From an uncultured Phycisphaerales bacterium (GTDB lineage Bacteria > Planctomycetota > Phycisphaerae > Phycisphaerales > UBA1924), in NCBI GenBank assembly GCA_963976955.1, contig CAXBMD010000003.1, forward strand, positions 147,464-211,463: a stretch of DNA of 64,000 bases. The letters run 5' to 3'. A model generated the notes under the pieces. It searched no databases. It worked only from the letters and a program-made list of their open reading frames with translations, and was not told the origin of the DNA. Of this stretch, positions 10,217 to 53,800 are shown in pieces (the first letter of the stretch is position 1; the number at the start of each line of letters is the position of its first letter). The position numbers were made by a program, and so were the translations under genes.

Positions 10217-10232
10217 ATCGTTCAGAGTGCAT

Positions 10233-13519: not shown

Positions 13520-13661
13520 CAAAACTTCTCCTGAAGTTGCTATGTATTGAGAGCCACCTCGTCGCAGCAGGCGTGGACGGGGACGATTCAGTATCATACC
13601 GGCTCGATTGAAGCTGGATGCGTTGAGCGTGTTCTTCTATCTAGGGTGTTCCACGGAGGGA

Positions 13662-36127: not shown

Positions 36128-36228
36128 ACCCAGTTGTCGACATCCAGGCGGCACAGACACCAAAAACTCCCCCTGAGCGTCGCTCAACGCCTGTGGCGAG
36201 GTCTATAGTCATGCTCAGTTTTTCCACT

Positions 36229-36315
36229 GGAGCGGTGGCAGAGCGGTTGAATGCGCCGGATTCGAAATCCGGTTCGGCTTTCGGGTCGACGGGGGTTCGA
36301 ATCCCCCCTGCTCCG
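36229..36315 (+). tRNA. tRNA-Ser (anticodon CGA), class II with a long variable arm
   Basis: The sequence folds by hand. The acceptor is GGAGCGG/CTGCTCC (one G-U pair). The anticodon stem is CCGGA/TCCGG with loop TTCGAAA. The variable arm is TTCGGCTTTCGGGTCGAC. The T arm is GGGGG-TTCGAAT-CCCCC. No CCA is encoded. Confidence 0.9.
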
Positions 36316-36333
36316 TTGACTTCAAAGGTATAC

Positions 36334-36670: not shown

Positions 36671-38395
36671 TTACGCCGTTTGGAGATGGCGGGGCGCGGC
36701 GTTGATCCCGAGTTCAGCGGCTTGCCGATCCCAATCGAGTTGCTTGGATGCGGTGAGCAGATCATCGAGCGTGATGCTGCTGGGGAGTGTCCCGGAGAGG
36801 ACATACCTCAGGACTTCTGGGCTGAGTTGAGTCAGCGGGAGCAACTGTAAAATTCGCGAGCGAGCGATGCCCTGCTCCTTGGCGAAGACTCGGATCTGGA
36901 GTCCAGACTTGATGAGTGCATCGTGCCATCGATACGCCAGACCGATCGCCTCGACGAAGTGTTGTCTAGCCTCGGGCTTCGACGGGATGATCAGGTCATG
37001 GCCATCGGGGCAGAGGAGCAACCGTCGACCATCGAGCTTCTTGATCTGGAGTTGAAGCTTCAGCAGCATGTGCTCGCCACGGTCATCGACCTCGGGCGAT
37101 CGCAAGCAGACGGGGCGAGATGGCATCTCTTTCGATTGTGCTCTGAAGGTGTGACGATGGAGCTGTTCGATCTTCTTGGTCTCAAGCTGGACCGCGATGG
37201 AGTTGGGCGCAAGCGTGACCTCGTGGATGGCTTTCCGGATCCAGCGGTCCCGGACTTCCGTGGACTGCTGATCGAGATCGTGGTGGTCGAGATGTCCAAG
37301 GACCAGCCCTCGGACAAGCTCATCAAGGTGCTCCGCATTGATAGTTTTGATCGGGCAGTTCTTGAAGCCGTGCTTGATCGCCTTCTGGCTGATGTAGTAC
37401 CGCACGAGCCGTTTCTGTTTGGTCTCGTTCTTCTTGGTCAGTGGTCGTTGCGTGGAGGTCGGACTCATCGCGAATCCATCGCTCGTGCGCAGCTTCCCCT
37501 TGAGCAGGTGCGGGTGCGTCCATCGGTGCAGGTTCTTGCGGTCCTGCTTGGTCATCAGATCCTGCGCGGTGTCCCATGTCGCCTGATCGATGATGGCTTC
37601 ATGCAGCCCTTCGTAGATCTCGGTGTGGTCACCACGGGTGTGCGTGATCTTGCCGATGTACAGCATGTTGGTCAGCACGCTGTGGATGTATTTCTGGGAG
37701 AGCGGTTTGCCGCCGTGAACAGTTCCGTTCTTGCTCGTCCATTGTTTCGTCGTATGACCGGCTTCGTTGAGTTCGTTGGCGACGGCAACCGGTGAAGACA
37801 ACTCGATGTATCGATCAAAGATCGTGCGAACGAGATCCGCCTGCTCGGGGATGATGAAGAGGCCCTTGGTTTCCTCGCCCGTCTGGAGCCGGTATCCCAG
37901 CGGGGGTTGACCACCCACCCAGTATCCCTTCTTCTTGGTCGCCGCGAGCTTGTCACGGATGCGCTCACCCGAGACCTCTCGCTCGAACTGGGCGAAGCTC
38001 AGCAGCATGTTGAGTGTCAACCGGCCCATCGAGGTCGTCGTGTTGAACTGCTGCGTCACCGACACAAACGAAACCTGTTTCTCGTCAAAGACCTCCATCA
38101 TCCGCGCGAAGTCACTGAGCGAGCGGCTCAGCCGATCGACTTTATAAACAACCACCACATCGATGCGTCCCCGGTCGATGTTATCAAGCAACCGCTGGAG
38201 CCCCGGCCGTTTCATCGTGCCACCCGAGAAACCGCCGTCGTTGTACTCCTCTTCGACCAGCTGCCAGCCCTCGTGTTTCTGGCTCTTGATGTAATCGATG
38301 CCCGCTTCGCGCTGGGCATCGAGTGAGTTGAAGGCCATGTCGAGTCCTTCCTCGTTGGATTTCCGGGTGTAGATCGCGCAGCGGGTGGTCTTCAT
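36671..38395 (-). CDS. Large serine recombinase (resolvase N-domain, recombinase domain and zinc-ribbon/coiled-coil C-terminus)
   Basis: The start MKTTRCAIYTRKSNEEGLDMAFNSLDAQR carries the catalytic Ser context YTRKS. VVYKVDRLSRS is present, and the protein is 574 aa. The start at 38395 has SD AAGGAG. The 703-aa ORF-track version is rejected because it overlaps the DUF2924 gene. Confidence 0.9.
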   Translation of the reverse strand: MKTTRCAIYTRKSNEEGLDMAFNSLDAQREAGIDYIKSQKHEGWQLVEEEYNDGGFSGGTMKRPGLQRLLDNIDRGRIDVVVVYKVDRLSRSLSDFARMMEVFDEKQVSFVSVTQQFNTTTSMGRLTLNMLLSFAQFEREVSGERIRDKLAATKKKGYWVGGQPPLGYRLQTGEETKGLFIIPEQADLVRTIFDRYIELSSPVAVANELNEAGHTTKQWTSKNGTVHGGKPLSQKYIHSVLTNMLYIGKITHTRGDHTEIYEGLHEAIIDQATWDTAQDLMTKQDRKNLHRWTHPHLLKGKLRTSDGFAMSPTSTQRPLTKKNETKQKRLVRYYISQKAIKHGFKNCPIKTINAEHLDELVRGLVLGHLDHHDLDQQSTEVRDRWIRKAIHEVTLAPNSIAVQLETKKIEQLHRHTFRAQSKEMPSRPVCLRSPEVDDRGEHMLLKLQLQIKKLDGRRLLLCPDGHDLIIPSKPEARQHFVEAIGLAYRWHDALIKSGLQIRVFAKEQGIARSRILQLLPLTQLSPEVLRYVLSGTLPSSITLDDLLTASKQLDWDRQAAELGINAAPRHLQTA

Positions 38396-38405
38396 GGTGT
38401 ACTCC

Positions 38406-38861
38406 TTACGATGCCTGCTTGAGTTTCTTGAGGCCGAAGAATCGAGGACCGGACCAGCGTGCGCCGGTAATCTCGCGGGCGATCTCGGACAAGCTGGCAA
38501 ACTCGGTTTCCCGGTAGCGGAAGCGCTTACCGTCTTCGATGACCGTGACCTCGTGGTGATGTCCCCTCCATGTGCGAACGAGCGTCGTCCCCTCGGCGAG
38601 CTGGACAGGGTCCCGCTGCTTCCGCTGTGTAGCGACGACTTGCTTGGATGCCGGAGTTGGCGCGTTGCGGATCGCGGCCTTGAGCAGGCGGCGTGTGCCC
38701 GCGTCGAGTCCGCCGTGGGTGTGTTTCTGCAAGTGCCATGAGATACCCCGGACCAATGCCTGCTTGAAGTGAGGTGGATCACCCCGGATGCCCAGACTCG
38801 CCCATTCCTGTTGGAGCCGGGTTGTGGTGAAACTTGTGAGGGTTTGGAGTTCGATGGTCAT
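38406..38861 (-). CDS. DUF2924-like protein (recombinase-associated)
   Basis: The C-terminal FASLSEIAREITGARWSGPRFFGL matches my recollection of the DUF2924 signature, which is usually encoded just upstream of large serine recombinases. The stop lies 10 nt before the recombinase start. Confidence 0.7.
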   Translation of the reverse strand: MTIELQTLTSFTTTRLQQEWASLGIRGDPPHFKQALVRGISWHLQKHTHGGLDAGTRRLLKAAIRNAPTPASKQVVATQRKQRDPVQLAEGTTLVRTWRGHHHEVTVIEDGKRFRYRETEFASLSEIAREITGARWSGPRFFGLKKLKQAS

Positions 38862-39098
38862 GCGGGTCTCGTGGTCAAGCCCCTGTCGCCGACCCAGGGA
38901 TCCGCGCACACCGATCGCGCCGCTCAGGTATTGAGAGGGATCGTTGACCCGTGTGCTTGGGTTTCTGGGGCCGGCATCAAGGAGCCGGTCGGGGTGCTGC
39001 GGGAGTCTCCCGCGGTGTGACACATGAAGCCATGGATTGGGAGAGATTGCAAGTCCAAAGGGCCTAGATTCTCGACAAATATGGAAGTCTTTGGAAAA

Positions 39099-40178
39099 TC
39101 AGCCCATCAGGTGCGAAGTGCGCTCACCACCATGCTTATTCACCCACTCTTCAGTACTGAGCCTCGGCGGCGGTCCCGGACGAATGCATGTTCGCTCACC
39201 GAAGATACGGTCAAGCACATAGTGTTCCTCGGGCACCTGCGCAAAGAACACGCAGCTCCGCTTGCATTCCTCTTCGGTCGCGTCGGGATGGGGTGCTCTA
39301 TGGAATGCTCCACCACGCCCCTCGCCCTGCCCGGCGGCGTATGGCTGCTGCTGGTACTGGGACATGAACGCGCGAGCACCCATCCGCTCCATGGCCGCGC
39401 GGAGTTGCTCCCGATCTTCACGCGCCGGATGGAGGGCCTCGCCTTTCTTTCTCGCGAGTTGTCCGCTGATCGACGCGGGGAGGTATTCGTCCTCGGTGGC
39501 AATCGCCGCTAAGCTCAGCACCTCCCAGTCTTCTTGTTTGAGCAGATGCGCCGTGAGATCGTCATCGGCGAGCCGCTGCATGGCCACGATGATCACGCCG
39601 TCGTGCTTGCTGTCCAGACGCTGGTAGATGTTCCGGTCAAACCAGTTGTGAATCGAGATGGTCTTCTGTGGATCGTCCGCTTCGTGGGCCGACTGCGGGT
39701 CATCGATGATGATGAAGTCTGCACCCCTGCCCGTAATAGCCCCCGACGGTGTGAATCCCGCACGAGAGCCGCCCTGCGCAAGCTTCAGGGTGCTGGTCGA
39801 TTCTTGCACACGCACATGCGGGAACAGCGACCGGTATCGTGGATGGTCCATCAGGTTCCGGGTCAGATCATGGTGCTCATTGACCAGCCCTCGGTGCCCG
39901 GCGACGCACATGATCTTGGACTCTGGTCGCACACCAAGCACCCAGGCAGGGAAGGCGATCGATGTGCAGATCGACTTGAGTGATCTCGGCGGCATGTTGA
40001 TGATGAGCCGCTTGGTCTCCCCGCGGTGGCACCGGGCCAGCGCCTCACCCAACACATCGATCGACCAGTTGTGCTGGTACTTGATATGCGGGTGCAACGC
40101 CCTGAACGCCAGCTGGAAGAACATCCGGGGCTCATACTGGTACATATGACGGATCGCTTTGGTTTCTGGGCTACTCAT
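39099..40178 (-). CDS. Terminase-large-subunit-like ATPase with a short or degenerate C-terminal (nuclease) region
   Basis: A Walker A-like MPPRSLKS and a Walker B DFIIIDDPQ are present. MSQYQQQP and HYVLD are typical of TerL-family proteins. At 359 aa it is shorter than the usual size of more than 420 aa. Confidence 0.6.
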   Translation of the reverse strand: MSSPETKAIRHMYQYEPRMFFQLAFRALHPHIKYQHNWSIDVLGEALARCHRGETKRLIINMPPRSLKSICTSIAFPAWVLGVRPESKIMCVAGHRGLVNEHHDLTRNLMDHPRYRSLFPHVRVQESTSTLKLAQGGSRAGFTPSGAITGRGADFIIIDDPQSAHEADDPQKTISIHNWFDRNIYQRLDSKHDGVIIVAMQRLADDDLTAHLLKQEDWEVLSLAAIATEDEYLPASISGQLARKKGEALHPAREDREQLRAAMERMGARAFMSQYQQQPYAAGQGEGRGGAFHRAPHPDATEEECKRSCVFFAQVPEEHYVLDRIFGERTCIRPGPPPRLSTEEWVNKHGGERTSHLMG

Positions 40179-40563
40179 CAGTCGGCTCCTTTGTCTGATT
40201 CTCTTCTGCGGATCCTAACTGACGGGTCAGTTGTTCGAAGGCTTGACGATCTGCGGCGTCGGGTTGGAACCCCTCGACTGAGTGGTGCTTGGCAATAAAC
40301 GGAAGGGCCAACTTCGTGGCCCGCAGATCACCCTTGATCGCGTCGTTCATCAGTCTTTTGATGATCACTTCGCGTTTGGTGAGGGTCACCTGTCGCCCGC
40401 CCTCCGTGATCCGGAGTTCTTTGCTGAGCTCGATATCGATGAGCTTCTCGAAGTCTTTGATCTTCTTCGGTCGTCCGTTCGGGTTTCCTGATTGACCCGC
40501 TTTCCACTGTGTGTGCTTGGGTGGTTTCTGGTATCCGATTTCGTATTGGGGTTGATCATCCAT
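40171..40563 (-). CDS. DUF5681-like small protein
   Basis: The N-terminal GYQKPPKHTQWKAGQSGNPNGRPKK matches the motif I recall for DUF5681. The gene overlaps both neighbours by 8 nt. Confidence 0.6.
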   Translation of the reverse strand: MDDQPQYEIGYQKPPKHTQWKAGQSGNPNGRPKKIKDFEKLIDIELSKELRITEGGRQVTLTKREVIIKRLMNDAIKGDLRATKLALPFIAKHHSVEGFQPDAADRQAFEQLTRQLGSAEENQTKEPTDE

Positions 40564-41935
40564 TTGTCATCTCCTCTAGGTTGTTCGCGTTGGCGCGGGT
40601 TTCTGTGAGTTCGGTGTAGGTCTTGCCGGTCTGCTCGTGGATGGCTTCTTTCCCGGTCCATTGCTGCCAGCGGGCGATCGCGACATCGACATAGCGCGGG
40701 GAGAGTTCCATCCCGGCACACACGCGTTTGGACTTCTCGCAGGCGATGAGCGTCGAGCCGCTGCCGAGGAACGGATCTAAAACAATCTCACCACGTCGCG
40801 AGCAATCAAGGATCGCCTCTTCGATGAGCCGCACCGGTTTGATCGTCGGGTGGAGCTTGAGCACTTCGCGCGACGCGGGGTCTCCCTCGGCGGCATCGAG
40901 CGAGCGTGCCGATGGGAAGCTCCACACATTGCTCCGCATGCGCCCGTGCTCGCCGAGGCCGAAGTTGTTCCGGTGACGATCGGTCCCGTGCTTGAACACA
41001 AAGACCAGTTCGTGCTGGCTGCGATAGAACGTGCCCATCCCGGGGCGGTCCTTAACCCAGATGCAGAGATTCTTGAGCTCGGTGTAGTGGGTGTTGCCCG
41101 CGGCCAGCATCTCGGTGGCGTGCCGCCAGTCCATGAAGTGGTAGTGGATCGAGCCGGGACTGCTTACCTTGCAGAGTTGTTTCATCACGGACCCGAGGAA
41201 CTCCGTGAACTCGGCCGGGGACATCTCCCCTGAACCCATGGCGAAATCGCCGTGCTCACCGGCGCACACCTGTCCGATGGCTTTGGCGGGTAAGTTGTAC
41301 GGGGGATCGGTGAAGATCATTGCGGCCTGCTGATCGCCAAGCAGTTGTTGGTAGGAAGCCGGATCAGTACAGTCGGCGCACAGCACGCGATGTGCATGGT
41401 CTCTATCGCCGAGGATCCAGAGATCACCGGGTCGAGTTACTGGGGCGAGAGCTTGGTCGTCGGGAAGATCATCCGCATCATCGTGCTCGGCGATTCCATC
41501 ACCGGCAAGTGCCTCCTCGATCCCCAAGATCCGCTGCTCGATCTCACCGTAGTCGAAGCCGATGCACTCGATGTCGAAGTTGAGATCCAGATCGGAGAGG
41601 ACCTTGAGGTGCTCACCGAGCAACTGGTCGTCCCAGGTGCTGATCTCGGTGAGCCGGTTGTCGGCGATCATCAGGGCACGGATCTGAGAGTCGTCGAGAT
41701 CGGTCACCCGGATGGCCGGAATCGAGGTCATCTTGAGGAGTTTGCTCGCCTCGACACGGGCATGGCCGCACACCAATCGTGAATCCTGATCGATGATCAC
41801 CGGCATCCGGAAGCCGAAGGCTTCGATGCTCTGGGCGATCTGGCGGATCTGCTTCTTGGGATGCACACGAGGGTTACTGGGGTGGGGGGTGATGTTGGTT
41901 AATTTGATATGTTCGATCTGTAGTTCGGTGTTCAC
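40556..41935 (-). CDS. ParB-like N-terminal domain fused to a DNA methyltransferase (DPPY, N6A/N4C beta class)
   Basis: The ParB-N part reads IEHIKL...HPSNPRVHP...ICGHARVEA. The methyltransferase part has motif IV FTDPPYNL and motif I IVLDPFLGSGSTLIA. The start is a GTG at 41935 with SD AAGGAG. The longer ORF-track N-terminus is rejected. Confidence 0.85.
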   Translation of the reverse strand: MNTELQIEHIKLTNITPHPSNPRVHPKKQIRQIAQSIEAFGFRMPVIIDQDSRLVCGHARVEASKLLKMTSIPAIRVTDLDDSQIRALMIADNRLTEISTWDDQLLGEHLKVLSDLDLNFDIECIGFDYGEIEQRILGIEEALAGDGIAEHDDADDLPDDQALAPVTRPGDLWILGDRDHAHRVLCADCTDPASYQQLLGDQQAAMIFTDPPYNLPAKAIGQVCAGEHGDFAMGSGEMSPAEFTEFLGSVMKQLCKVSSPGSIHYHFMDWRHATEMLAAGNTHYTELKNLCIWVKDRPGMGTFYRSQHELVFVFKHGTDRHRNNFGLGEHGRMRSNVWSFPSARSLDAAEGDPASREVLKLHPTIKPVRLIEEAILDCSRRGEIVLDPFLGSGSTLIACEKSKRVCAGMELSPRYVDVAIARWQQWTGKEAIHEQTGKTYTELTETRANANNLEEMTNG

Positions 41936-42331
41936 GGTGAACTCCTTAGTCAGGGCGATGACACGAAGACACCGCCGCAGGGACAAAGCGACCCGAGCAC
42001 GCACAAGCGGATATGGAGAACGACACCACAACACGCCGGGCATACCGGTAGAACAGGATGAATTTCTGAGTTCTAGTCGCCCGAGCCCCGGCGTCAGAGA
42101 TCGGTCCGGAACCATGTTCCAGTATCCGCTCCGAGACCTGCTGGATTGAATCAATCGCACCAGCGGGAACCTGCCTGGACCATACCAGGCTACGGCCTAA
42201 CTACCCATGCAGCCGGCCGCGGCTGGGCAATCCAACTGCTCCCGATCACATCGACCCATGTCGGGTGGGTTGGGAGGGGATGGATTGCCTAGACAAATTG
42301 TAGCACAAAAATGCAGGGGTCAAGCGTAGAT

Positions 42332-42630
42332 GTAGTGGGCAAAGAAAAAAATTTCTGCATGCAGTGTTCAGACATTAGATAATTGCTCTATTTCGACTTT
42401 CAATTTACTTACATCTGGGAATTGGTAACAAGCCATTCGGCTGGAGAGATTCACAGTGAGCCACGGAGCGCGGATAGGGTTTTTGAACCTCTGAAGGGTG
42501 GGATTTCGGCTGAATTGTAGATGATTCTAGAAAGATTGAAATCCATCCGTTTGGGTACGTTTAGCCGGGTTTCTTCGAGAATGTAAATGACTCCAGAAAG
42601 ACTGAGTGCCTTATGATTGAGTACACTCCG
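42332..42630 (+). repeat. Junction repeat copy R1
   Basis: It contains GTAGTGGGCAAAG (42332), GCGGATAGGGTTTTTGAACC (42470), an internal tandem duplication of a GATTCTAGAAAGA-type unit, and GTGCCTTATGATTGAGTACACTCCG (42604-42630). Confidence 0.7.
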
Positions 42631-42736
42631 TCTCAAATTTGTGACGATGGAGCTTATGTGGTACAAATTTCGGTTCCCAAGGGGGGCGACCAACAATCAA
42701 CTTCAACTCGCTATAATCTGTTAGTAGGAGGTATGC

Positions 42737-42910
42737 ATGCCCTGGCTCACTGAGATTCTCGCGTTCATCGGCGGCGTCATTGCCACACTTACTGCAAAGC
42801 CGCTTCTAGGACGGTTCATGATCCGTATGAATTCAAACCGCGTAAATCAGTCCAATGCCAAAGCGTCCGGCGACATTGTTGGCCGTGACAAGATCGGACG
42901 GGATGCCTGA
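42737..42910 (+). CDS. Small membrane-anchored protein (57 aa), the first ORF of the ABC-3C-like operon
   Basis: Hand translation gives MPWLTEILAFIGGVIATLTAKPLLGRFMIRMNSNRVNQSNAKASGDIVGRDKIGRDA. It has one TM helix and a GDIVGRD-type motif. An SD GGAGG lies upstream. Its stop overlaps the next ATG (ATGCCTGA). Confidence 0.5.
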   Translation: MPWLTEILAFIGGVIATLTAKPLLGRFMIRMNSNRVNQSNAKASGDIVGRDKIGRDA

Positions 42911-43481
42911 GTTGGGCAATAACCGCACCAATCAGTCAGGGTCACAGGCTGGCGGCCATATAGCCGGTAGAGATATTCATATTGTTAATGAACAGCAGCA
43001 CATCTCGCCGCTTCGATCACTACTAGCTCGTATTGATCAAGCACGCGAAGATGATCCAGAGCTCAATGAGTTGATTGATCAGCTTCAGCACTTCTCAAAT
43101 CCTGCTGGGGACGGCCCGCCAATCGGCCTTGAGAAGAAACTCATGGATGGCAATCGCGAGGAATTAGTTCGGCAAGCCACTCGTGAGAAGGAGATGTTTG
43201 CCAAGCTCCTCGCCCAAAATCAGCTCTCGTACAGCGCGCAGAAGGTATATGCATATTTACTGGGCAGCGTACGAGATCGTTTCAAGCGATATATTACACC
43301 ACTTCTTTGCGACAATGCTACAGCGGATCAAGTCGACGCAGCCATTGTTGAGCACATCGTCGAGCCGTGTGTGCAAGACCTCGAGCACAACCCGCTCGAT
43401 ATCAGCACAACTCATATCCACGGCATGGTGTATTTTCTGACCGGCAACTGCTATTTGCTATGGACAGGGAGGGATGTATGA
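42903..43481 (+). CDS. ABC-3C C-terminal-domain (CTD)-like component
   Basis: The sequence runs MPELGNN...AGGHIAGRDIHIV and then helical...HGMVYFLTGNCYLLW. It resembles my recollection of ABC-three-component CTD proteins. The ORF-track start at 42855 is also possible. Confidence 0.55.
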   Translation: MPELGNNRTNQSGSQAGGHIAGRDIHIVNEQQHISPLRSLLARIDQAREDDPELNELIDQLQHFSNPAGDGPPIGLEKKLMDGNREELVRQATREKEMFAKLLAQNQLSYSAQKVYAYLLGSVRDRFKRYITPLLCDNATADQVDAAIVEHIVEPCVQDLEHNPLDISTTHIHGMVYFLTGNCYLLWTGRDV

Positions 43482-43984
43482 TCCTTTATCACCCCGTTCA
43501 CGATCCGCATCATGCGGCCTTTCGTATGCTCCGCTTGCTATTGGCCCATCCCGATCACGCGATACCTCACATCGCTCTTAGAATTTTGGATTTCTATTTA
43601 CTTTTCCCTGCGGAGATCGAGGATATTCAGATGCCCGCCGCACTGCGTACGTGGAAAACGATGTTCCGCTCACACCAGAACAAGTACTTCTCGAACGTCT
43701 CGAAACACTCAGTCTTCAGGCAGCTAGCGGGACCACAGGTGCTGGGTCTCCGTCTACTGCAGTCTCGCGGCCTCATCTCTGATATCGCTGGCGACGCCAA
43801 TCCAATCTCAGCGCATGTGGAAGAGATCCCATCCGGACTTGCCGATATGCTGCGGCGTGTGGATGATTCAGAGCGACAGCTGATTAACTTCCTCGCACGC
43901 GATCTTGGAGCGACCGAGTTGAATGGCCAGATGGGCTTGAAAAAAAGAACAGGGCTTGCTGAGTTCCGCTATGACATCGCATAA
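43478..43984 (+). CDS. ABC-3C middle-component-like protein
   Basis: The 168-aa helical protein reads MILYHPVHDPHHAAFRMLRLL...LRILDFYLLFP. It overlaps the upstream gene by ATGA and the downstream gene by 14 nt. Confidence 0.55.
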   Translation: MILYHPVHDPHHAAFRMLRLLLAHPDHAIPHIALRILDFYLLFPAEIEDIQMPAALRTWKTMFRSHQNKYFSNVSKHSVFRQLAGPQVLGLRLLQSRGLISDIAGDANPISAHVEEIPSGLADMLRRVDDSERQLINFLARDLGATELNGQMGLKKRTGLAEFRYDIA

Positions 43985-45977
43985 TCCCAGCTTGTTTGTG
44001 AGACGATTCGTGATTTCCGCGGGGGAACATCGTGGTTATGACGAAACATTTAAACTTGGGCTTAACTTTATCACCGGCGAGAGCAATGCCGTAGGCAAGT
44101 CAACGGTTGTCAATCTGCTCGCGTTTGCGCTTGGCAGTGATCTGACTGATTGGACGCCAGAGACGCTTCGGTTTGACAGTACTCTTGTAGAAGTAAGTCT
44201 GAACGGAGCAACGCTCACACTGAGGCGAGAGATATCTGAAGATCGTGGCCGGCCAATGGACGTCTACTGGGGCTCGCTTGATGACGCGCTCAAGGCCACG
44301 ATCACCGATTGGGAACGATACGGTTACAAGCGATCTGATCACAAAGAAAGCTTCTCATCGCTGCTGTTCAAACTACTTGGCTTGCCGGAAATTCACAATG
44401 AGCTGGGCGGTAAGCTCACGATGCACCAAATTTTACGACTCATCTTCGTCGATCAACTGACTCCGTCCGACGAGATGTTTGGCTCCGAGGACTTTGATTC
44501 ACCTGCAGTGAAGCGTGAAGTTGGCGCAATTCTCTGCGGATACTATAGCGATGCGGAGTACAGGCTCCGTGCTGATCTTCGGACCGCAGCAGATGAGCTT
44601 CAAGAGCTGAAGGCACGGCAGAAGATACTCGACGAATTCGTCCTAGATACAGAGCAAGATATCTCGGTACTGTCCGTGCAAACACAGTTAGATAATGCTC
44701 GCTTCAAGCTTACGGAGGCAGAAGCCTCAGTGCGAACCGTCTTGGAAAATCCACGTTCTCGACGTGAGATCACTACTGAGTACAAGCGGCAACTGAAGGC
44801 GGCCCAGAAGGATGTTGAAAATGCTGCCCACGATCTAGGGCGTTCCGAACGAGAGCTCGTTTCAACACGGTTTGCTATCGAGGATAGCCAGTTATTTGTA
44901 GACTCCCTTGATCGGACGCTCGCAGCGCTGGAACAGTCCGCGTCAATTCGTGATGCACTTGGCGAGTTGCCTATACGTAGTTGCCCAGTGTGCCACCATC
45001 CAGTCGCTTTGGTGGCAGATGAGTCCAACTGCCCTCTATGCAAAGAGACGCGAAGCCCCGGAGCTGATGAGACACAGCTACTGCGAATGCGCAGCGAACT
45101 CACCCTACAACGGGAGGAATCCCTTCGCTTGCAAGATGAGCGGCAAGAACAGATGCTTCGTTTGGAAGTTGTAGTCCCACAGCAAAAAGTAGCTCTCAAA
45201 ACTACAAGAATGAAGCTTGGTCGCCTTCAGGAGAGCATCGATCCGGCCATTGATGCAACGATTGGAACTGCTTATCGTGAGGCGGGCTACTTGCAGGGTG
45301 TTGTCGAAGATCTTGAACGGCAGCTTCGAATGGTGCAGGAGCTAGAGGCAGCAAGGGAGCGTCGCTCCCGGCTGGACGCAGAAATCAACCGCATGAAGTC
45401 CGAGCTTGCTGCAGCCGAAGATAAAACTGAAGAACGACGCTCTGAGGCCCGGCGGCTCATATCTGAACACACTGTGGAATTGCTTCGACGAGATGAATGT
45501 AATGCGCAGGGTGAGCCAGTAGAACGCGGACTATCTGAGTGTCACAGCGTTGATTTCAGCTTTTCAAAGGGACAAGTGCGAGTAGATGGCCGGCGGACGT
45601 TCTCGGCAAGCTCGATGGTAATCCTTAAGAACTCATTTCATACAGCGATGCTGCTCGCTTCTCTTGATGATCCTGATTTTCGGTATCCACGCCTGCTCAT
45701 TTTAGATAACATTGAAGACAAGGGAATGCAGCCATCCCGAAGCCATAATTTTCAGCATCTGCTACTAGATGTGTCCAAGAACACGGAAGTAGACCACCAG
45801 ATTATCGCCACAACTTCTATGATTGCTGAGGATCTCAGAGGCTCTGAGCATATTGTCGGGCAATACTATACATCGACACGGAAGTCTCTCGTACTCCCCA
45901 GTCATACCTCGGCGGACGGAGAAGGCATAACGACGAGTAAACCTGCGGCCGAGCCAAATGAACCGGACGCAGATTAA
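43971..45977 (+). CDS. Rad50/SMC-like ABC ATPase with a coiled-coil insert and a central 4-Cys zinc ribbon
   Basis: Motifs present are Walker A GESNAVGKST, a signature-like FSASSM and Walker B RLLILDNIED. About 300 aa of heptad-rich sequence contains CPVCHH...CPLC. Confidence 0.8.
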   Translation: MTSHNPSLFVRRFVISAGEHRGYDETFKLGLNFITGESNAVGKSTVVNLLAFALGSDLTDWTPETLRFDSTLVEVSLNGATLTLRREISEDRGRPMDVYWGSLDDALKATITDWERYGYKRSDHKESFSSLLFKLLGLPEIHNELGGKLTMHQILRLIFVDQLTPSDEMFGSEDFDSPAVKREVGAILCGYYSDAEYRLRADLRTAADELQELKARQKILDEFVLDTEQDISVLSVQTQLDNARFKLTEAEASVRTVLENPRSRREITTEYKRQLKAAQKDVENAAHDLGRSERELVSTRFAIEDSQLFVDSLDRTLAALEQSASIRDALGELPIRSCPVCHHPVALVADESNCPLCKETRSPGADETQLLRMRSELTLQREESLRLQDERQEQMLRLEVVVPQQKVALKTTRMKLGRLQESIDPAIDATIGTAYREAGYLQGVVEDLERQLRMVQELEAARERRSRLDAEINRMKSELAAAEDKTEERRSEARRLISEHTVELLRRDECNAQGEPVERGLSECHSVDFSFSKGQVRVDGRRTFSASSMVILKNSFHTAMLLASLDDPDFRYPRLLILDNIEDKGMQPSRSHNFQHLLLDVSKNTEVDHQIIATTSMIAEDLRGSEHIVGQYYTSTRKSLVLPSHTSADGEGITTSKPAAEPNEPDAD

Positions 45978-46026
45978 CCACGCACATGATTCGCGAATCA
46001 ATGATTGCCACGCACTGTCATATGAC

Positions 46027-46382
46027 GTAGTGGGCAAAAACGAATCGACGGGTATGGTGGCTGATAGTTATTGGATTTGCAGAGGAATGGATGTGCTTGG
46101 GGATCAAAAACCCTATCCGCGCCCATCGTCGATGCGACAGCTGGAATTTGGCAGTTTGTTAGAGCAGCCCGAGTCTTTGAATCACTCAATGGCATCACTT
46201 CGTGTGCTATCGTGCAATCGACCCATCGGCTCTACCCAATGCCAGCATTTTGGGTGACCGTGCGGCATTGATCTTGTATCAAAGGTGCGGATAGGGTTTT
46301 TGAACCCCTGGAGGGCGGGGGGTCTGCAAAAAATATAGTTGATTCTAGAGAAACTGTATGCCATATGTTTGAACACACTCCG
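46027..46382 (+). repeat. Junction repeat copy R2 (most complete; contains a 17-25 nt inverted-repeat pair)
   Basis: It contains GTAGTGGGCAAAAA (46027), TCAAAAACCCTATCCGC (46104-46120), GTCGATGCGACAGCTGGAATTTGGC (46128), GCGGATAGGGTTTTTGA (46287-46303) and GTATGCCATATGTTTGAACACACTCCG (46356-46382). Confidence 0.75.
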
Positions 46383-46760
46383 GGTAGAAGTTGAACGGTT
46401 CAAGGTCTGCAGTGAAGACAGGCAATACGAAACCACCATCATTGTCAGGCAAACCATGATTCTAGCCCCTAGCAAGGAAGACCCTGCCGGGGTAGTTCCA
46501 GGACTAAAGGAAGCCCGGACAATTGAAGGTAAGCCATGCAATCGCCTCGACGAGACGCGATTTGAGATTGTTGGATCCAATACTGTTCTTATTCGGGTAT
46601 AGTGATTATCAGGTGGAGCAACTAGACTACAATGTTCGTCCGCTTCATTCCATATTGCAGGTGCCGGCTCCTGACTAGCTTACCAATAGCTTGCCCATTT
46701 TTTATGCGAGATAACTCTTGAAAAAGATGGAATTCGCAGATTGTCCAAACATGACGAACT

Positions 46761-49700
46761 TCAGGCATCCAACAATGTATCTGGATAGCAGATTTTAACT
46801 TGTGCAATGGCATCATCTTCAATGAACTCAATCGGTACGCGATTCTGAAACAGGAGGACTGATTCAATGGTCGTTTCCTCCATGCCAACAAATCTAGCCA
46901 ACGCCTGTTGGTTGTCACAAAGTAAATTAACCCGTTGCAAATGACGCAACAGCCGATCGGGTTTTCCACGGTTATCTACTTGACCACGAAACTCCACCAG
47001 TTGCCTTGCAACTTCTCCAGGGGTCTTCGCAACAAATAAATTTTTACACTCGATGACAAGCGTGCGCGATAGTTTCGGATTCCATGCGAGAATATCTACA
47101 TCACCATAGTCTCGTTCGAGCTTTCTTCCGAGAATCTCTGGAAGTTCACGCTCGAGCTTAACTTTCCACCCATCCTTTCGGAGCAATGCTGCCATAGATT
47201 TGGTGAACTTGTGTCCAAGTTGATTACGGCGTGATCCAGCCCAGGCACGCATCCGCTGAGATGTGAAAATCTGATCCTCAAATTCACCATTAAATGCGCG
47301 CGACAAGCGAAGTGCGAGTCCTATCCGCACCAGTTCTGGGCTACATATGCATAGGCTCTCATCCGAATTGGTCAGTTGAACGATTGGGCGGTAAACCAGC
47401 GACAATCGACGCTTGAATCGCCACGGGACAATATCTTTGTCGGTATACCCTTCGGAAGGTATATCCCATGAAGCCCTATGCCTGATGATTAGTTCATTGA
47501 TAAACCGGTTGGATGAGTCTTCCGACATAGACTTTGCTGCGAGTTGGAAATATCGGGATCGTTTCCAGCATACGACTGGGCTGTGCTCTTGAAGAGCTTG
47601 GTCATCCAGCTCGTCAAGGAACTTCCGTGCTTCGTCAATATCGAATCCGAACTCTTCTTTCCAAATCTCAGGAAACTCGGCACCTACTGTCTCGGCTATA
47701 GGATCGCTTCGGATATCCTGCTCAAACATATTTTCGTATGAATCTGAGTAGCTCTGGAGGCGGATAGATTCCGTACCGAAACCATATGGTTCGAGAATAC
47801 CATCGTGAAAATCACTCGAGATATGAAGGAGCCCAAGTGTAGATACTTCAATTCTGTCAGTGATCACTTCGCACTGAATGCCATCAGACCAACCGCCGTA
47901 TTGGCAGATAAGCTGAATCAGTGCTATAAGTCGCGATAACTCAAATTCCCCTGGCATTTCGCCATCGCTCTCGGGGCACTCGCAAATCGCCATCTCGATA
48001 GCGTATCGACTTGCACTACTTGCGATGTTATTACGAAAAATATGATCTGCTGCAGTTCGTAGTGTGTTGTCTTTACCATCTTGTAAAGCAAGGACAGCAC
48101 GAATCGTTCTCTGCCACTGTTGATTGCTGCGATGAGTCGCCATCGTATTGAGCATCAGTTTCTCGATAGTTGACTTTCGATCAAGCCGCTTGAGCAACTT
48201 CCGTACATCCTCCCATAGGGAATCTACGACTTGGTTCAGTGTGGAAGTACACCGCTTGACCCCATCAATGACATCTCCAGGAGACAATCCTTTCACCCGA
48301 AACGCTATGCCCAAACGACTAAGCGTGTCGTCAAACGGTTCGAATAAAATCGGATGACGGGGTATCTTGTCAGCTACGAAATCAGCAAATTCTCTCGCTT
48401 CGAACAAATGAAAATGGCGAGCGTATTCACTACCGACCGCCTGCTTGGCAGTCTGGATGGGATCAAGATCAGTGTTGAGTATCTGATTGACACCGTCTAC
48501 GAGCGACATCAGTATGGCCTGTTCAGCGGAGTTCTTTGGTTGGTGAAAGCCAATGTACACGGATCTTGGCAAATAGGAAGTGATACTTTTTTTCGAAATG
48601 TTAACTCGTGTCTCAATTTTCGAAAACAACTGATCGGCCGATTCGGGTTGATCAATATTGAGATCCGCGGGATCAGATGTAGTTTCGTACTCAATATGCC
48701 ATGCAATTTCGGTCATGGATGAGATTCCGATCGCCGATTCGAGTGCTGGGACAATCGTCGCGATCCATTTAGTAGCTGCATCCCAGAATCTAAACAGACC
48801 ATCACGATCTTCGGGGTCTGCAGTATGGCTGGTGAGCCACACACTCATCCAGGCCCCTTCGTACACTGATTTGAGCGTGCCCAAGGCAATATCGGTTATA
48901 GATCCATAAAGCGGCAAGTCGAATTCGGAACTAAAATAGGAACCTATATGGTACCGACGAACTAGCACTGGCATTGATTCGGGTGGAGTAGCAAGATGAA
49001 GATCATGTAGTTGAGCAACGCAACGGCGCATATCGAAGATTGAGTTTAAGGGGATTGAGAGCATCAGCGGACCACCGTCCTTGACCATGTCCGGCTCGAG
49101 GGCACTATGGGGTGCGAGATGGAAACCTTGACTGGAAACAAATTCGAAGAGATTCAATAGCCCATTTGCATTTCGAATCAGGACATTTCTTCGCTCAAGT
49201 TCCCGGACATGGTCTAGCAGGCGAAACATGTGAAGCGGCTGCATTCCCTTTGACCAACTCAAGGTGACAAGTTGCTCGATTGATGTCACTTCGATACGCC
49301 AGTCATCTCTTCCTGTTTCAAACGCAGGTATTGCAATTCCACGCCCCCATCCGCAACCAACCACGATTGTGATACCCTCTTTGTAGTTCGGCTGTGATGC
49401 CGCACGACTCATTGCAGCATCTAGGCAGCTTTGGCATAAGTCGCCAGCGTTGTCGAAAGAAGGACTTACGCTTGTGAAATTGTGATAATTGAACTGCTCG
49501 AAATCATCCAAGAGGAATAGGAAATGGATGAAACGACCCGAGTCGACCTCCTTTATGACTTCACCTGTGACAATGGGATTGTCAAAACGCCATAAAAGTG
49601 GGGCACCGAACGATTCTCCAAGTATTGGGGTTCCTTTGATGAGATCCGTATACTCGAGTGCTAAACGACTACCCAGCATGCTTTTCATGCCATACTGATC

Positions 49701-50537
49701 AGCAAACATGATTACACGAAATCGAATTGCTGTTGAAATATTGGCTGGTACTGCGATCAGCACACCACTTGAGTACCTAACCAGTGGTTTCAGAAAAAGA
49801 TCAGAACGACCTTCTTCCTGCCGAGTTTTACGGAGAAGTTGTACTGATGTTGAAAAGGCTATAATGTCATCTGGTTTGACCCCAAGTTGTGCAAGCTCAG
49901 CATTTGTGAATAAGACAGCCTTGCTCAACTCGGAGGCTTGTGAAGCGACTTCCGGTTGAAGCCTTGGCACCGGATACTCCTCGCCACAGCTGTATCGCGT
50001 GAGACCACGGCGCTCTGCAACCGCCTCGGATAGTATTAGCATGCTCTTGACTTCATCTTTGAGGAGGATAAATGGCTGCTTGTCTGGCATTGATTCGATA
50101 GCATTAAGAAATCTTTGGAGATGAAATGCGCTCGCTTCCCAAAGCCCTTCAAAGATGCGAAAATTCTGGCCACGAAAGTAAACAAGCGAGACAAAAACAT
50201 CCTCGGCAGGGTCTTCCATTGAGCCATGCCCTAGATCGCCAAATATTTTGAACAGTTGTATCAGCTGATTTGTGTTTAATCGCTTTTTGCCATTTGCATT
50301 GCAAAGGACATCTTCAATCATCTTTTCCAGACGGTGAGCATTTGAGGCAACTTCTGGGCAAGTCAGTAAACCAGCAATCTGAGCGGTTGAATTTATGGGA
50401 TCCAAGTTTTTGATAACTCGATCAGCCTCTGTTGATTTATTCTGAAACTGTCGGCGATCATGTTCGGGTATCTTGGGCGCACCAAGCTTATCGAGCTTAG
50501 CCTGGTATTTTTCTTGATCAAACTCTGCAGGTTCCAT
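46761..50537 (-). CDS. Giant (1258 aa) protein of unknown function with a C-terminal PD-(D/E)xK (Mrr-cat/restriction-endonuclease-like) domain
   Basis: The C-terminus reads GHKFTKSMAALLRKDGWKV...YGDVDILAW...LVIECK, a D...ExK pattern at about residues 1146-1165 by my count. I found no Walker A or helicase motif anywhere. The coding sequence is low in GC. Confidence 0.75.
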   Translation of the reverse strand: MEPAEFDQEKYQAKLDKLGAPKIPEHDRRQFQNKSTEADRVIKNLDPINSTAQIAGLLTCPEVASNAHRLEKMIEDVLCNANGKKRLNTNQLIQLFKIFGDLGHGSMEDPAEDVFVSLVYFRGQNFRIFEGLWEASAFHLQRFLNAIESMPDKQPFILLKDEVKSMLILSEAVAERRGLTRYSCGEEYPVPRLQPEVASQASELSKAVLFTNAELAQLGVKPDDIIAFSTSVQLLRKTRQEEGRSDLFLKPLVRYSSGVLIAVPANISTAIRFRVIMFADQYGMKSMLGSRLALEYTDLIKGTPILGESFGAPLLWRFDNPIVTGEVIKEVDSGRFIHFLFLLDDFEQFNYHNFTSVSPSFDNAGDLCQSCLDAAMSRAASQPNYKEGITIVVGCGWGRGIAIPAFETGRDDWRIEVTSIEQLVTLSWSKGMQPLHMFRLLDHVRELERRNVLIRNANGLLNLFEFVSSQGFHLAPHSALEPDMVKDGGPLMLSIPLNSIFDMRRCVAQLHDLHLATPPESMPVLVRRYHIGSYFSSEFDLPLYGSITDIALGTLKSVYEGAWMSVWLTSHTADPEDRDGLFRFWDAATKWIATIVPALESAIGISSMTEIAWHIEYETTSDPADLNIDQPESADQLFSKIETRVNISKKSITSYLPRSVYIGFHQPKNSAEQAILMSLVDGVNQILNTDLDPIQTAKQAVGSEYARHFHLFEAREFADFVADKIPRHPILFEPFDDTLSRLGIAFRVKGLSPGDVIDGVKRCTSTLNQVVDSLWEDVRKLLKRLDRKSTIEKLMLNTMATHRSNQQWQRTIRAVLALQDGKDNTLRTAADHIFRNNIASSASRYAIEMAICECPESDGEMPGEFELSRLIALIQLICQYGGWSDGIQCEVITDRIEVSTLGLLHISSDFHDGILEPYGFGTESIRLQSYSDSYENMFEQDIRSDPIAETVGAEFPEIWKEEFGFDIDEARKFLDELDDQALQEHSPVVCWKRSRYFQLAAKSMSEDSSNRFINELIIRHRASWDIPSEGYTDKDIVPWRFKRRLSLVYRPIVQLTNSDESLCICSPELVRIGLALRLSRAFNGEFEDQIFTSQRMRAWAGSRRNQLGHKFTKSMAALLRKDGWKVKLERELPEILGRKLERDYGDVDILAWNPKLSRTLVIECKNLFVAKTPGEVARQLVEFRGQVDNRGKPDRLLRHLQRVNLLCDNQQALARFVGMEETTIESVLLFQNRVPIEFIEDDAIAQVKICYPDTLLDA

Positions 50538-50699
50538 CTAGACTCCAGTTGCAACAATCGTAGCCGGGAAAATCCAATCTTGATTATCGGGAAATAATGA
50601 TCCAGCGAGATTGTGGGTTCGCGGTGGTATAGCAGATGACGACACCCTCTCGCGTATACCTAAATAGCATGTGAGCTTTATGTAACGGCTTCGTATTGG

Positions 50700-50800
50700 G
50701 CGGTATGGGGAGACTGGAAATTGGGAGGCTGCTTACCCCGGGGTTTCTTTAAAACGAGGCAATTATTGAGAAACCTAATGCCATGTGTCTAAACACGCTC
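50700..50800 (+). repeat. Junction repeat copy R3 (partial)
   Basis: GAGAAACCTAATGCCATGTGTCTAAACACGCTC (50768-50800) aligns with the 3' end of R2. The upstream part is only weakly similar. Confidence 0.5.
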
Positions 50801-50808
50801 TAAGACTA

Positions 50809-53800
50809 TTACTTGCCAGATCCAATCAACGCCTCTGCTTCGGTGAGGAGGGATTGGGCGATTCGGTCTTCGGCCCAGGGGGTGCCGTCGGGGTTGAGGG
50901 CTTGGGGGTCGGCCATGATGGCACGGGCGAGATCGAACGCGTATCGAGCCCGTGCTTCATCTGATTCTCCACCGAGGCCAGGAAGTTCGGAAGGCGGCAT
51001 CAGTATCGCAGAGTCAGAATCCCCCCAGATCTGAGCCAGTCCGAGGGCGAATACCAGCCGATCGATCGGATTTGGAGGGCCTCCCGCGTCCGAACGAGCA
51101 CGCCATGCAAAGGCACTCTCCGCAACGGCAATGTCAAAGTTACCAGCAGTGAGTTCAGCCTGGGCGGCAATCCGAAATGTTGCTTCGTGCTCTGCCCCGA
51201 ACTGAACCCCGTTATTCACAGCCGTGCGGAGTACTTCGAGAGTAAGTGAACTATCGATTCCCGCCAACTCGATACAGGTCTGCACGGCCTCCGTCATGTC
51301 CGAATGCCATTGCTCCCAGTGAACTGCAGGCGCCCCTGCATCTCCTGATCTCGCCACGGCGACTGCCTCCGCAAGTCGCCGTTGCTTGGTTTGTTCGGCT
51401 AGCTGCTCTTTTTCCGTAACCCGGGGTGGTGTGTATTCCCACACCTCGGCTTTGGCGAGGACTTGTTCCTTTACCCTCACAGGCAGGTCCGCGGCGTTGG
51501 CAGCGGAGAGGACCTCGGTCTTGTTGGTCTGGTCTTTGGTGATGGTCTCGAATGCACGCTTTGCTTCATTGTCGATGTCGCCGAGGCGTTCTCCGAGCAA
51601 CTCGGCGGCGGCTAGGCGGCGGAGGGGGGTGAGCGCGGGGGATGTTTCGATGGCGGGCATCAAATCATCGGTTGGGGTCGGCCCGGCCATGAGGGTGTCA
51701 AGGTACGCTCCCGCAGGAATACGCTCGGCCCAGCGGCGCTGGACATCGGCGGCCTGATCCTCGGCGGATCGGGTGTCTAAGATTCTGGCTGAGCCGTCGT
51801 CGAGTTCGATGACCAGGCGTGTGCCATCGGGCGTGAAGGTCAGGTTGGTGACGCCGGCGTCCATGGGGATCGACGCGAGTTCGTTCTCGGTTTCGGGGTC
51901 CCAGAAGCGGACTGTGTTGTCGGCGGCTGCGGTGACGATTCGGGTGCCGGTGGGGTGGGTGGCGATGACTGTCGTATTGAGAGTAAAGGGTACAGATTGA
52001 AGCTTCATCTCATGAACATCTTTTCCAATACCATCAGGATCGATCTCAGCTTCGATCGCAAGCAATAGGTGTTTGCTCTGATGCAGCAAGCGGTCAGACT
52101 CGTAAAGACTATTTGTTTTCATCAAAACTGATTTACTACGGCCTTGACGATCAAAGCCATTGATAAAGACCGTGTCGTTGTCGACGAATTCCGCAATCCC
52201 ATTGTCACTTGATTTAACAGGGGCATGAAAGAGAGGTCCAATCAGATTGCCCTGCATATCAAATAGACCAGCTCGACCTTCGGACGACCAACTATTGATG
52301 AGAATCTGGCTGCTATCGTTAGATATTAACACAAAAGAGAGATGGTTTCCAGCAAGCCCAAAATCATTGATATGCGACCCATCTCTGTTCCAGAGGTGAA
52401 TCAAACTCGTCTTTCGAATCAATACAACTGAACTATCCGGGCTGAAACGGATTCTTGGTGAGTTGCTGCTGTGCGTTGCCTGAGCTAGTACAGGACCAAC
52501 CCGGTTGCCGTCAATGTCCCACATCCGGACACTGTGATCGCCACTCTCGATCAGGACCCGTTGCCCATCCGGGCTGATCGTGATTGATTCGGCTCTGCTA
52601 TCGAGTTGTATGAACATGCCGTGTTCGGATCCATCCAAATTCCACATCTGCACGCGACCATCTTCTGTTGCAGTGATAAGCATTTGCCCGTCGGGGCTGA
52701 ACTTGGCGATACTCACCGTACCGCTGTGGATCATTGGCGAACCTACTGATGAGCCGTCGAGATTCAATAATTGTACAGTTTGATCCGCATAAACCACGAG
52801 TAACATCGAATCATCCGGACTAAATATTGGCTCCCATATCCAATCTGTTTCATGGAGTTCACGAGTTACTATTCCTGAAAAATCCAATTGGCGAATGGTT
52901 CGATCTTTCAAAATTATCGACATTCTTTGGTTATCATGGCTAAAGCGAACATCATTTGTCCATGCATAATATGGAATTGGCTCTCCGACCGGTTGCCCAT
53001 CTAAGTTCCAGAGTTGCAAAATCTTTTGAGGAATATGATCATCAGATTTGTACCCACCAAGGCTAACTGTGCTTAAATAATTTCCGTCAGGGCTGAGCTT
53101 GACAGAGACCAGGGAACCCTCAGTTGACATTGAAACGCCGATTTGATTTCCTTCTGTGTCCATGAACTTCATGCGTTGGCTGTAGAATTCCCATGACAAT
53201 ACAATTTTTCCATTAGGACTGACCAACAATTCTCCTGAAAATTCTTTGAAATAGCTATTCGCTCTTTTTGACAAGTACTCCCACTCCCACCCGCGTTTGC
53301 TTTGGGGGCAGGCGGCGATGCGGTCGCGGGCTTCGGGCCAGTTGCTGTTGTCCATCGCCATCTGTGCCAGCGCTAGGTTGGCTGTGTACGAGTTCCACTC
53401 GACTTCATCTGTTCGCACAAGCAACTTCTCATTTGTGTCTTTCAGATCGTCTCGCGCAGATTGAGCGATAGTGGCGTTATTCAGCGCCGCATCGGCGTTG
53501 TATTGCGCGATCACCAGCCCCACAGTTGTCCCAGCAATTCCTAGCAGCAGAGTCGCCGCGACTGCACCTCCGGCGATCACCGGTCCTCGATTCCTTTTCA
53601 CAAATTTCCGAAGCTTGTACCCTCGGCTCACCGGAGCAGCAATAACCGCATCTCCGTCGAGATGCCGCTGGACATCGGCTGCCAATGCGCTGGGGGTTTC
53701 GTATCGCCGCGACCGATCTTTGTCGAGCGCCTTTATGGCGATCCAGTCGAGTTCGCCCTTGAGAAGAGCGCTGAGTTTGGTTGGCTCGGATTTTCGCGAT

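Follow-up and report, generated by a model that had tools for sequence, protein, structure and literature searches.

A divergent Upx protein on a recombinase-borne mosaic island of a marine Phycisphaerales bacterium

Introduction

Upx was reportedly discovered by Gao et al. (2020, Science) as a single-gene defense system. What is already known of the family includes its name (given in 2020), a structure (released in 2026) and a proposed mechanism based on terminase sensing. Here we describe a gene at 46761..50537 (minus strand) of a 64,000-nt stretch from an uncultured marine Phycisphaerales bacterium (GenBank assembly GCA_963976955.1, contig CAXBMD010000003.1, positions 147,464 to 211,463; the whole stretch is referred to as the window). 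The gene encodes a 1258-aa protein that almost certainly belongs to the Upx family, as a divergent member of full length. The protein would be labelled as Upx by any current DefenseFinder or PADLOC run, and it extends the range of the family to marine Phycisphaerales (Planctomycetota), where it is carried on a recombinase-borne mosaic island.

The name Upx stands for “uncharacterized PD-(D/E)xK defense protein”, and the single-gene system is catalogued in both DefenseFinder and PADLOC (PMC13099982). According to Evans et al., Upx was first reported as a single-gene defense system in an earlier paper (ref. 17 of PMC13601566; pmid 32855333). The homologue from Salmonella enterica NCTC6026 (SeUpx; SQI81149.1, PDB 9wuf) has been characterized in two studies of 2026 (PMC13099982, PMC13601566). 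In the structure determined by Zhou et al. (PMC13099982), SeUpx is a monomer, a state confirmed in the Ragucci preprint, with an N-terminal domain (NTD) that spans residues 1-515, a middle domain (MD, 516-714) and a C-terminal domain (CTD, 715-1272). In their assays SeUpx is a Mg-dependent 3'-5' exonuclease on single-stranded DNA (ssDNA), with no activity on double-stranded DNA (dsDNA), and its canonical site consists of D1161, E1176 and K1178. They also proposed a second, N-terminal “minimal PD-(D/E)xK” site made up of D122, D127, R129, E147 and D173.

Evans et al. (PMC13601566) found that the large terminase (gp19), and not gp16, is the sole PhiV-1 activator of SeUpx and of HpUpx (from Hydrobacter penzbergensis). 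Three Upx homologues, the third being PbUpx (from Pyrinomonadaceae), respond to the ATPase domains of diverse terminases, one pair of these homologues sharing only 16% identity, and the ATPase domain of the terminase alone suffices as the trigger (PMC13601566). In AlphaFold 3 models from the same study, the ATPase domain is partly unfolded and sits in the N-terminal sensor through beta-augmentation; the authors argue for a cell-death-type outcome, and they observed defense also against T4, which has no gp16. The SeUpx mutants E1176A or E1176A/K1178A lose defense and terminase-induced toxicity (PMC13099982, PMC13601566).

Results

Assignment to the Upx family

The gene is an ATG-start open reading frame (ORF) of 1258 codons plus stop, and its product is matched over nearly its full length by every library with an Upx entry that we used. 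The PADLOC Upx model (PDLC02221) aligns residues 35-1256 of the protein to positions 34-1269 of a profile of 1271 (E=1.9e-241, 802 bits), and the PADLOC scan at E<=1 returned no model other than Upx, leaving Shedu and the other catalogued nuclease systems unmatched. NCBIfam NF042954 (anti-phage protein Upx) covers residues 42-1254 with positions 26-1238 of 1240 (912.6 bits, E=2.7e-274). The Pfam family PF28173 (“Upx-like”) has a precomputed match for the exact window protein (P0001) as well as for all 74 homologues. The 1272-aa chain of PDB 9wuf (“Cryo-EM structure of Upx”) is colinear with residues 44-1256 (E=6.7e-155). An exhaustive phmmer search of 1.84 billion representative proteins gave 2,226 homologues with E<=1e-3, of which 729 had E<=1e-30; almost all of the homologues are full-length (~1250 aa). 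Scanning GTDB genomes for the protein pattern turned up no close relative. The identical protein is present on nine Tara Oceans metagenome/Logan contigs, the longest of which is a 3.04-Mb scaffold.

The predicted structure points to the same family. An AlphaFold2 model of residues 59-1258, built from a 69-sequence alignment (pLDDT 92.4, pTM 0.90), matches the three-domain NTD-MD-CTD fold of the solved Upx structure. When this model was compared with the PDB by Foldseek, 9wuf was the sole significant match (E=1.3e-78, TM 0.82/0.81, 1233 aligned columns, 27% identity); the runner-up had an E-value of 0.13, and there was no Avs-like or STAND structure among the fold matches.

The initial annotation, made from the sequence without database searches, had read the protein as a new and uncharacterized defense family, namely a giant orphan nuclease whose sensor region was of a new kind. 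When newer libraries are left aside, an orphan is indeed what one sees: PHROGs gave no match, and Pfam-A gave a single sub-threshold match to Mrr_cat (PF04471; residues 1108-1171, E=0.14, with 12.8 bits where the cut-off is 21), which explains why about 1050 aa had seemed unrecognizable. The Pfam-A copy that we used and PHROGs contain no Upx model, and their silence is therefore no argument against membership. No restriction-enzyme model in Pfam, NCBIfam or PADLOC was matched beyond this weak Mrr_cat hit. The orphan reading is refuted by the full-length Upx model matches, the solved Upx structure and the 2,226 homologues, and we give it a negligible probability. PADLOC, NCBIfam, Pfam PF28173 and 9wuf (in sequence and in fold) place residues ~35-1256 in Upx, and assignment of the whole protein to a characterized family was the very outcome that the annotation had named in advance as counting against its claim. 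It had also proposed AlphaFold and Foldseek as a way to classify the N-terminal region, and in that comparison 9wuf was the only significant fold match.

The features read directly from the sequence were accurate. The ORF and the listed features are real, and all quoted C-terminal strings (LGHKFTKSMAALLRKDGWKV, YGDVDILAW and LVIECK) are found in the translation. In agreement with the statement that the protein has no P-loop, helicase or methyltransferase motif, a regular-expression scan of the Upx protein detected no Walker A, DEAD/H or methyltransferase motif.

Domain organization and active sites

Domain limits were transferred from SeUpx via the family alignment. The NTD (aa 1-513, equivalent to SeUpx 1-515) is encoded at 48999..50537, the MD (aa 514-711, SeUpx 516-714) at 48405..48998, and the CTD (aa 712-1258, SeUpx 715-1272) at 46764..48404, all on the minus strand. 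The NTD is a putative terminase-sensing domain, by analogy with the work of Evans et al. (PMC13601566). Compared with P0049 (a 1272-aa close relative of SeUpx that scores 1690 bits to 9wuf), the window protein shows 27% identity in the NTD, 22% in the MD (the least conserved domain), 31% in the CTD and 38% in the nuclease core. The C-terminal numbering of P0049 is shifted by 2; catalytic residues were mapped by direct alignment to the 9wuf chain.

The PD-(D/E)xK nuclease core (aa 1104-1258; 46764..47228, minus strand) aligns to residues 1103-1270 of 9wuf (E=6e-28). In an alignment of the C-terminal 173 aa, GDVDILAW...VIECK of the window protein pairs with GDIDLLAW...VIECK of 9wuf, and D1148, E1163 and K1165 (codons 47094-47096, 47049-47051 and 47043-47045, minus strand) align exactly to the experimentally validated SeUpx residues D1161, E1176 and K1178. 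The triad is invariant in 69 of 69 homologues and in 198 of 198 full-length family members. Among the latter, R1202 is also invariant (198/198), H1199 is kept in 196 and D1146 in 194. A PD-(D/E)xK nuclease preceded by a huge non-catalytic N-terminal region had been proposed for this ORF, and the intact triad bears this out; the residue count given then was exact, so that the alanine substitutions suggested as controls hit the correct residues.

The proposed second site of SeUpx is not conserved in this way. In the corresponding stretch of the NTD (aa 120-171; 50025..50180, minus strand), located by a phmmer alignment to 9wuf together with the family columns, SeUpx D122/D127/R129/E147/D173 become Y120/N125/R127/N145/E171, and a single acidic residue out of four survives in the window protein. 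None of the family members (0 of 198) shows the complete acid-acid-basic-acid-acid pattern. The column of SeUpx position 122 is hypervariable, that of position 127 contains Asn in 119 members and Asp in 38, and that of position 147 contains Asp in 85, Asn in 72 and Glu in 13; the arginine is mostly retained (147/198). Because the pentad is unconserved, this site cannot be a family-wide catalytic center, and judging from these alignments it characterizes, at most, SeUpx or its subclade and does not define the family. It is unlikely that the NTD of the window protein, or of most of the family, has nuclease activity such as that described for SeUpx. The combination of an invariant C-terminal triad and an unconserved N-terminal site favors a sensor role for the NTD in most Upx proteins, and it bears on a live disagreement in the literature over how Upx works. 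We note that the mutants K111A/K134A and D135A/N138A in a legend of Zhou et al. do not match the 9wuf chain as aligned here (D111, V134, W135, A138); D122, D127, R129, E147 and D173 of the same study do match it, and the mismatch of the other mutants may be a numbering or labelling slip.

Next to this site lies an acidic motif, E108-D109-P110-A-E112-D113 (50199..50216, minus strand), whose five conserved positions are each kept in 92-97% of the 198 members. It is far more conserved than the adjacent residues published as the NTD active site, and it may be a metal site, a sensor core or a structural element.

These observations can be set against the model of Zhou et al. (PMC13099982), in which Upx confers direct immunity with two nucleases: the NTD and the CTD are both 3'-5' ssDNA exonucleases, the MD auto-inhibits the NTD, and a gp16-like phage ejection protein lifts the inhibition early, so that ssDNA phage replication intermediates are degraded and the cell is spared. 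The model draws on biochemical, cryo-EM and in vivo work with SeUpx. The NTD on its own cuts ssDNA, gp16 relieves the inhibition by the MD, D127A/R129A abolishes SeUpx defense, and cultures grow at a multiplicity of infection of 3; the window protein, for its part, has the same three-domain fold and keeps R127, E171 and the EDPAED motif. However, three of the four acidic NTD residues are replaced in it by Y, N and N, none of the 198 members has the complete pentad, and position 122 is hypervariable. Moreover, Evans et al. (PMC13601566) identify the terminase gp19, not gp16, as the sole PhiV-1 activator and report defense against T4 without gp16. gp16 is confined to PhiV-1-like coliphages, and its relevance to a marine planctomycete is unlikely. 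For the window protein we regard the two-nuclease model as unlikely.

Proposed mechanism

The best overall explanation, which we consider probable, is that the gene encodes a divergent Upx with sensor-nuclease action. At this locus, Upx would act as a stand-alone monomer in which the NTD, the MD and the helical portion of the CTD, ~1100 residues from the N-terminus, together make up an auto-inhibited sensor, by analogy with SeUpx, HpUpx and PbUpx. The sensor would recognize a phage's large terminase through the ATPase domain of that protein, perhaps along with further phage proteins, and recognition would release the Mg-dependent C-terminal nuclease to degrade nucleic acid. If the in vitro data for SeUpx apply, the substrate would be ssDNA, including replication intermediates, attacked from 3' to 5'; phage production would halt, probably costing the infected cell. 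Terminase sensing as the specific mechanism of the window protein is a step less secure, and we favor it with modest confidence. Family membership comes from the present analysis, and the trigger and outcome are carried over from SeUpx, HpUpx and PbUpx.

Several points weigh against this explanation. The case for the window protein consists of sequence and predicted structure, with a mechanism borrowed from other homologues. With 912.6 bits for NF042954, it does not reach the equivalog cut-off (1900), and the NCBI rule would not automatically name the protein Upx; this cut-off is a naming threshold tuned to close relatives and no biological criterion, and it implies a member of the Upx family rather than an equivalog of SeUpx. 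The published mechanisms conflict: one has gp16 as the trigger and direct immunity as the outcome, the other a terminase and toxicity/abortive infection (PMC13099982, PMC13601566). The mode of terminase binding rests on AlphaFold 3 models (PMC13601566), and the D127A/R129A mutant of SeUpx loses defense in vivo (PMC13099982). The near-invariant EDPxED motif (aa 108-113) beside the degenerate site may mark a metal, ligand or catalytic site in the NTD. Finally, the island that carries Upx also encodes a terminase ATPase-domain fragment (see below), which should be toxic if it is expressed and recognized.

Genomic island and neighboring genes

The Upx gene has a GC content of 0.469 and lies in a block (42161-50808) of 0.489, compared with 0.59 for the recombinase and ParB-methylase backbone of the island and 0.566 for positions 1-36000 of the window, and its description as part of a low-GC cassette is correct. 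A tRNA-Ser(CGA) gene (36228..36316, plus strand; found by ARAGORN and Rfam) adjoins the recombinase and is the probable island boundary; no direct repeat derived from this tRNA was found elsewhere in the window. The right-hand boundary is approximate (50.54-50.81 kb, from a GC step and an insertion sequence (IS) relic). The island backbone (36671..42160, minus strand) is the mobile-element module mentioned in the initial annotation (36.7-42.2 kb), and it includes genes for a large serine recombinase (36671-38782), DUF2924 (38406-39023), a truncated terminase large subunit with the ATPase domain only (39099-40178), DUF5681 (40171-40563), and ParB_N plus an N6/N4 methylase (40556-42160), all on the minus strand.

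Between the backbone and Upx, and convergent with Upx as had been described, is an ABC-3C operon (42855..45977, plus strand) with GC contents of 0.51-0.53, in which Pfam identifies CTD9 (E=1.2e-36), MC5 (E=3.2e-34) and an ABC ATPase (AAA_23). PADLOC recognizes the ATPase alone (LmuB-like, E=5.1e-42) and no LmuA-type effector. The ABC-3C class is a computational prediction and is not known to have been characterized experimentally. We consider the operon a candidate defense system separate from Upx and not a part of it.

Upstream of Upx is a 271-nt intergenic region (50538..50808, minus strand) containing GGAG at 50543-50546, 6 nt before the ATG. A consensus scan found a promoter-like site in this region (TAGACA-18-AATAAT, 50791-50762) with 10 of 12 consensus matches, which is weak evidence, and promoter-like sites in the scan showed no enrichment over shuffles. 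No intrinsic terminator was found 3' of Upx.

The next gene on the Upx strand encodes a 1330-aa Ser/Thr kinase with WD40 beta-propellers (50809-54801, minus strand), and it is preceded by, and overlaps with, a gene for an ECF sigma factor (PF07638; 54798-55373, minus strand). The GC content of the kinase-WD40 gene is strongly mosaic (0.608 at 51-52 kb, 0.461 at 52-53 kb). Copper-resistance genes follow beyond the ECF sigma factor. Three copies of a 39-nt unit, spaced by 186-204 nt, are found at 56954-57382 (plus strand) inside an ORF with TRASH/YHS matches (56465-57562); they probably reflect repeated metal-binding domains, not a DNA-level element.

Upx, the distal cargo of the island, stands alone in this setting, flanked by the unrelated kinase-WD40 gene and the convergent ABC-3C operon, and the absence of a partner methyltransferase or ATPase, as initially annotated, agrees with the 271-nt upstream gap and these unrelated neighbors. 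For some Upx genes, Avs1 or a second Upx has been reported as a partner (PMC13601566); neither was present among the neighbors scanned (40.5-55.4 kb). The Upx homologue is also alone in four related genomic contexts, with no recurring partner gene. A functional link between Upx and the kinase-WD40/ECF-sigma pair was considered and rejected, as the pair is missing at all four of these loci.

Two of the related loci carry homologues that are 58-60% identical and form the end-cargo of recombinase or integrase elements. In one of them (L007; homologue P0004, 60% identical) the frame is the same as in the window, i.e., a serine recombinase (57% identical), DUF2924, cargo, Upx, and copper and TRASH genes, and a type I restriction-modification system (HsdR, HsdS and two HsdM; 13693-23561 of L007) replaces the terminase fragment, DUF5681, the ParB-methylase and ABC-3C. 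The island cargo is thus swapped between related genomes, with ABC-3C in the window and type I restriction-modification in L007. In the other (L005; homologue P0003, 58% identical) Upx lies on an element with Prim-Pol, ParB-methylase, terminase and integrase genes. Of the remaining homologues, P0007 is located between two tyrosine integrases and P0006 among housekeeping genes. A defense-island and mobile-cargo context of Upx is supported by these loci, and the family match together with the elements in relatives upholds the proposal that the protein is anti-phage cargo of a mobile island.

Junction repeats as insertion sequence relics

Upx had been described as lying between two copies of a junction repeat. 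Three copies of the 20-mer GCGGATAGGGTTTTTGAACC are present in the window (42470, plus; 46101, minus; 46287, plus), a number that 0 of 100 shuffles reach. These strongest copies bracket the ABC-3C operon, and not Upx; what does bracket Upx is a ~135-nt unit 3' of the gene (46245..46385, plus strand) and a partial 39-nt copy in the Upx upstream region (50762..50800, plus strand), which is 30/39 identical to 46342-46380. Repeat scores were computed by local alignment, and 0 of 500 shuffles reach the observed score in all three comparisons: the partial copy (score 33, shuffle maximum 31), a unit upstream of ABC-3C with its core at 42470-42489 and a duplicated distal box (42430..42630, plus strand; score 63, shuffle maximum 32), and an inverted, diverged IS-end-like unit with its core at 46101-46120 (46030..46152, minus strand), which has a ~70% identical copy at 55425-55547 (score 58, shuffle maximum 33). 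The units at 42430-42630 and 46245-46385 align over ~100-135 nt.

Searching GTDB genomes for GCGGATAGGGTTTTTGAACC, we found that 10 of 13 matching stretches are from Phycisphaerales, and that a single contig accounts for five stretches and six copies. This distribution suggests a Phycisphaerales-like planctomycete as the host. The ~135-nt unit is highly conserved and multi-copy in marine Phycisphaerales metagenome-assembled genomes (loci L010-L022), where it lies directly 5' of, and includes the start codon of, a gene for a ~350-aa HTH+rve (DDE) transposase, which looks IS481-like by its domain architecture. The unit is the left end plus 5' untranslated region of a ~1.4-kb insertion sequence. 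In the window, the 46245-46385 unit still has ~16 codons from the start of the transposase gene (46272-46225, minus strand), and no transposase coding was found beyond them. The repeats are transposase-less relics of the left end of this insertion sequence at the boundaries of cargo modules. The idea of an island-specific junction is not sustained: an att site specific to the island was rejected, since the relic is dispersed in Phycisphaerales genomes. A structured RNA was also rejected, with no Rfam match and folding no better than that of shuffles (z=0.58).

A terminase fragment on the same island

The 359-aa ORF at 39099-40178 (minus strand), 6.6 kb from the Upx gene, matches two families of phage large terminases, phrog_38 (E=3.6e-51) and phrog_4758 (E=1.3e-40). 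Its Walker A is deviant (PPRSLKS), a Walker B (FIIIDDP) is present, and residues 61-267 match Terminase_6N weakly. DUF2924 begins 76 nt downstream, leaving no room for a nuclease domain, and on sequence grounds the ORF is a terminase large-subunit (TerL) fragment with only the ATPase domain. We also observed a full-length 764-aa GpA-type TerL in L005 (7367-9661, plus strand), directly upstream of and co-oriented with the Upx homologue (10001-13780). The terminases of the window and L005 share motifs only.

The presence of a terminase sensor and a terminase ATPase-domain fragment on one element raises the question of how an element-borne Upx avoids activating itself. It also brings in a further reading, that Upx serves mainly in conflicts between mobile elements or in island maintenance, aborting packaging by competing prophages or satellites, or forming an addiction-like or decoy pair with the terminase fragment. 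Upx of the window and its closest relatives do ride prophage-like or integrative elements, the island retains an ATPase-only TerL ORF, L005 has a full TerL directly upstream of Upx, and the ATPase domain needs no other part of the terminase to trigger Upx. However, terminase-like genes occur together with Upx in only two of the five loci examined, the two terminases are related by motifs only, and carriage on defective prophages explains the co-occurrence with no functional link. We consider a main role in element conflict very improbable. Functional coupling of the fragment to Upx, whether the fragment tunes Upx as a decoy or regulator or is a latent trigger through which the cell would die on losing or inducing the element (addiction-like), likewise seems to us a long shot; the simplest reading of the co-residence is that Upx is carried on defective prophage material.

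Comparison with known systems

With Mrr and type IV restriction endonucleases the window protein shares the PD-(D/E)xK fold and motif order in its C-terminal ~150 aa. It differs from them in that Mrr_cat is matched below threshold and over 64 of 1258 residues, in having no Mrr N-terminal DNA-binding domain, and, as far as its relative SeUpx is a guide, in substrate, as SeUpx does not cut dsDNA in vitro (PMC13099982).

The likeness to Avs1-3 is one of functional analogy only, in that a large sensor, on recognizing a phage's large terminase, switches on the nuclease effector fused to it. Neither a STAND NTPase nor a Walker A motif occurs in the window protein, PADLOC gives Upx alone, and there is no Avs-like fold match. 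Some Upx genes are associated with Avs1 (PMC13601566); no Avs gene adjoins Upx in the window.

The window protein and SeUpx are of the same length class (1258 and 1272 aa), are colinear over residues 44-1256 and have the same NTD-MD-CTD fold (TM 0.82); they have an identical D...ExK triad and the conserved H1199 and R1202, and both are encoded by single genes without an NTPase motif in a mobile or defense context. They differ in sequence (~27-28% identity, with the window protein below the NF042954 equivalog cut-off), in four of the five proposed NTD residues (Y120/N125/N145/E171 in the window protein and D/D/E/D in SeUpx), and in host, a marine Phycisphaerales planctomycete as opposed to an enterobacterium. 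The work on HpUpx and PbUpx shows that terminase-triggered, nuclease-dependent toxicity persists between Upx proteins down to 16% identity (PMC13601566), and the divergence between the window protein and SeUpx is well within the range spanned by these homologues.

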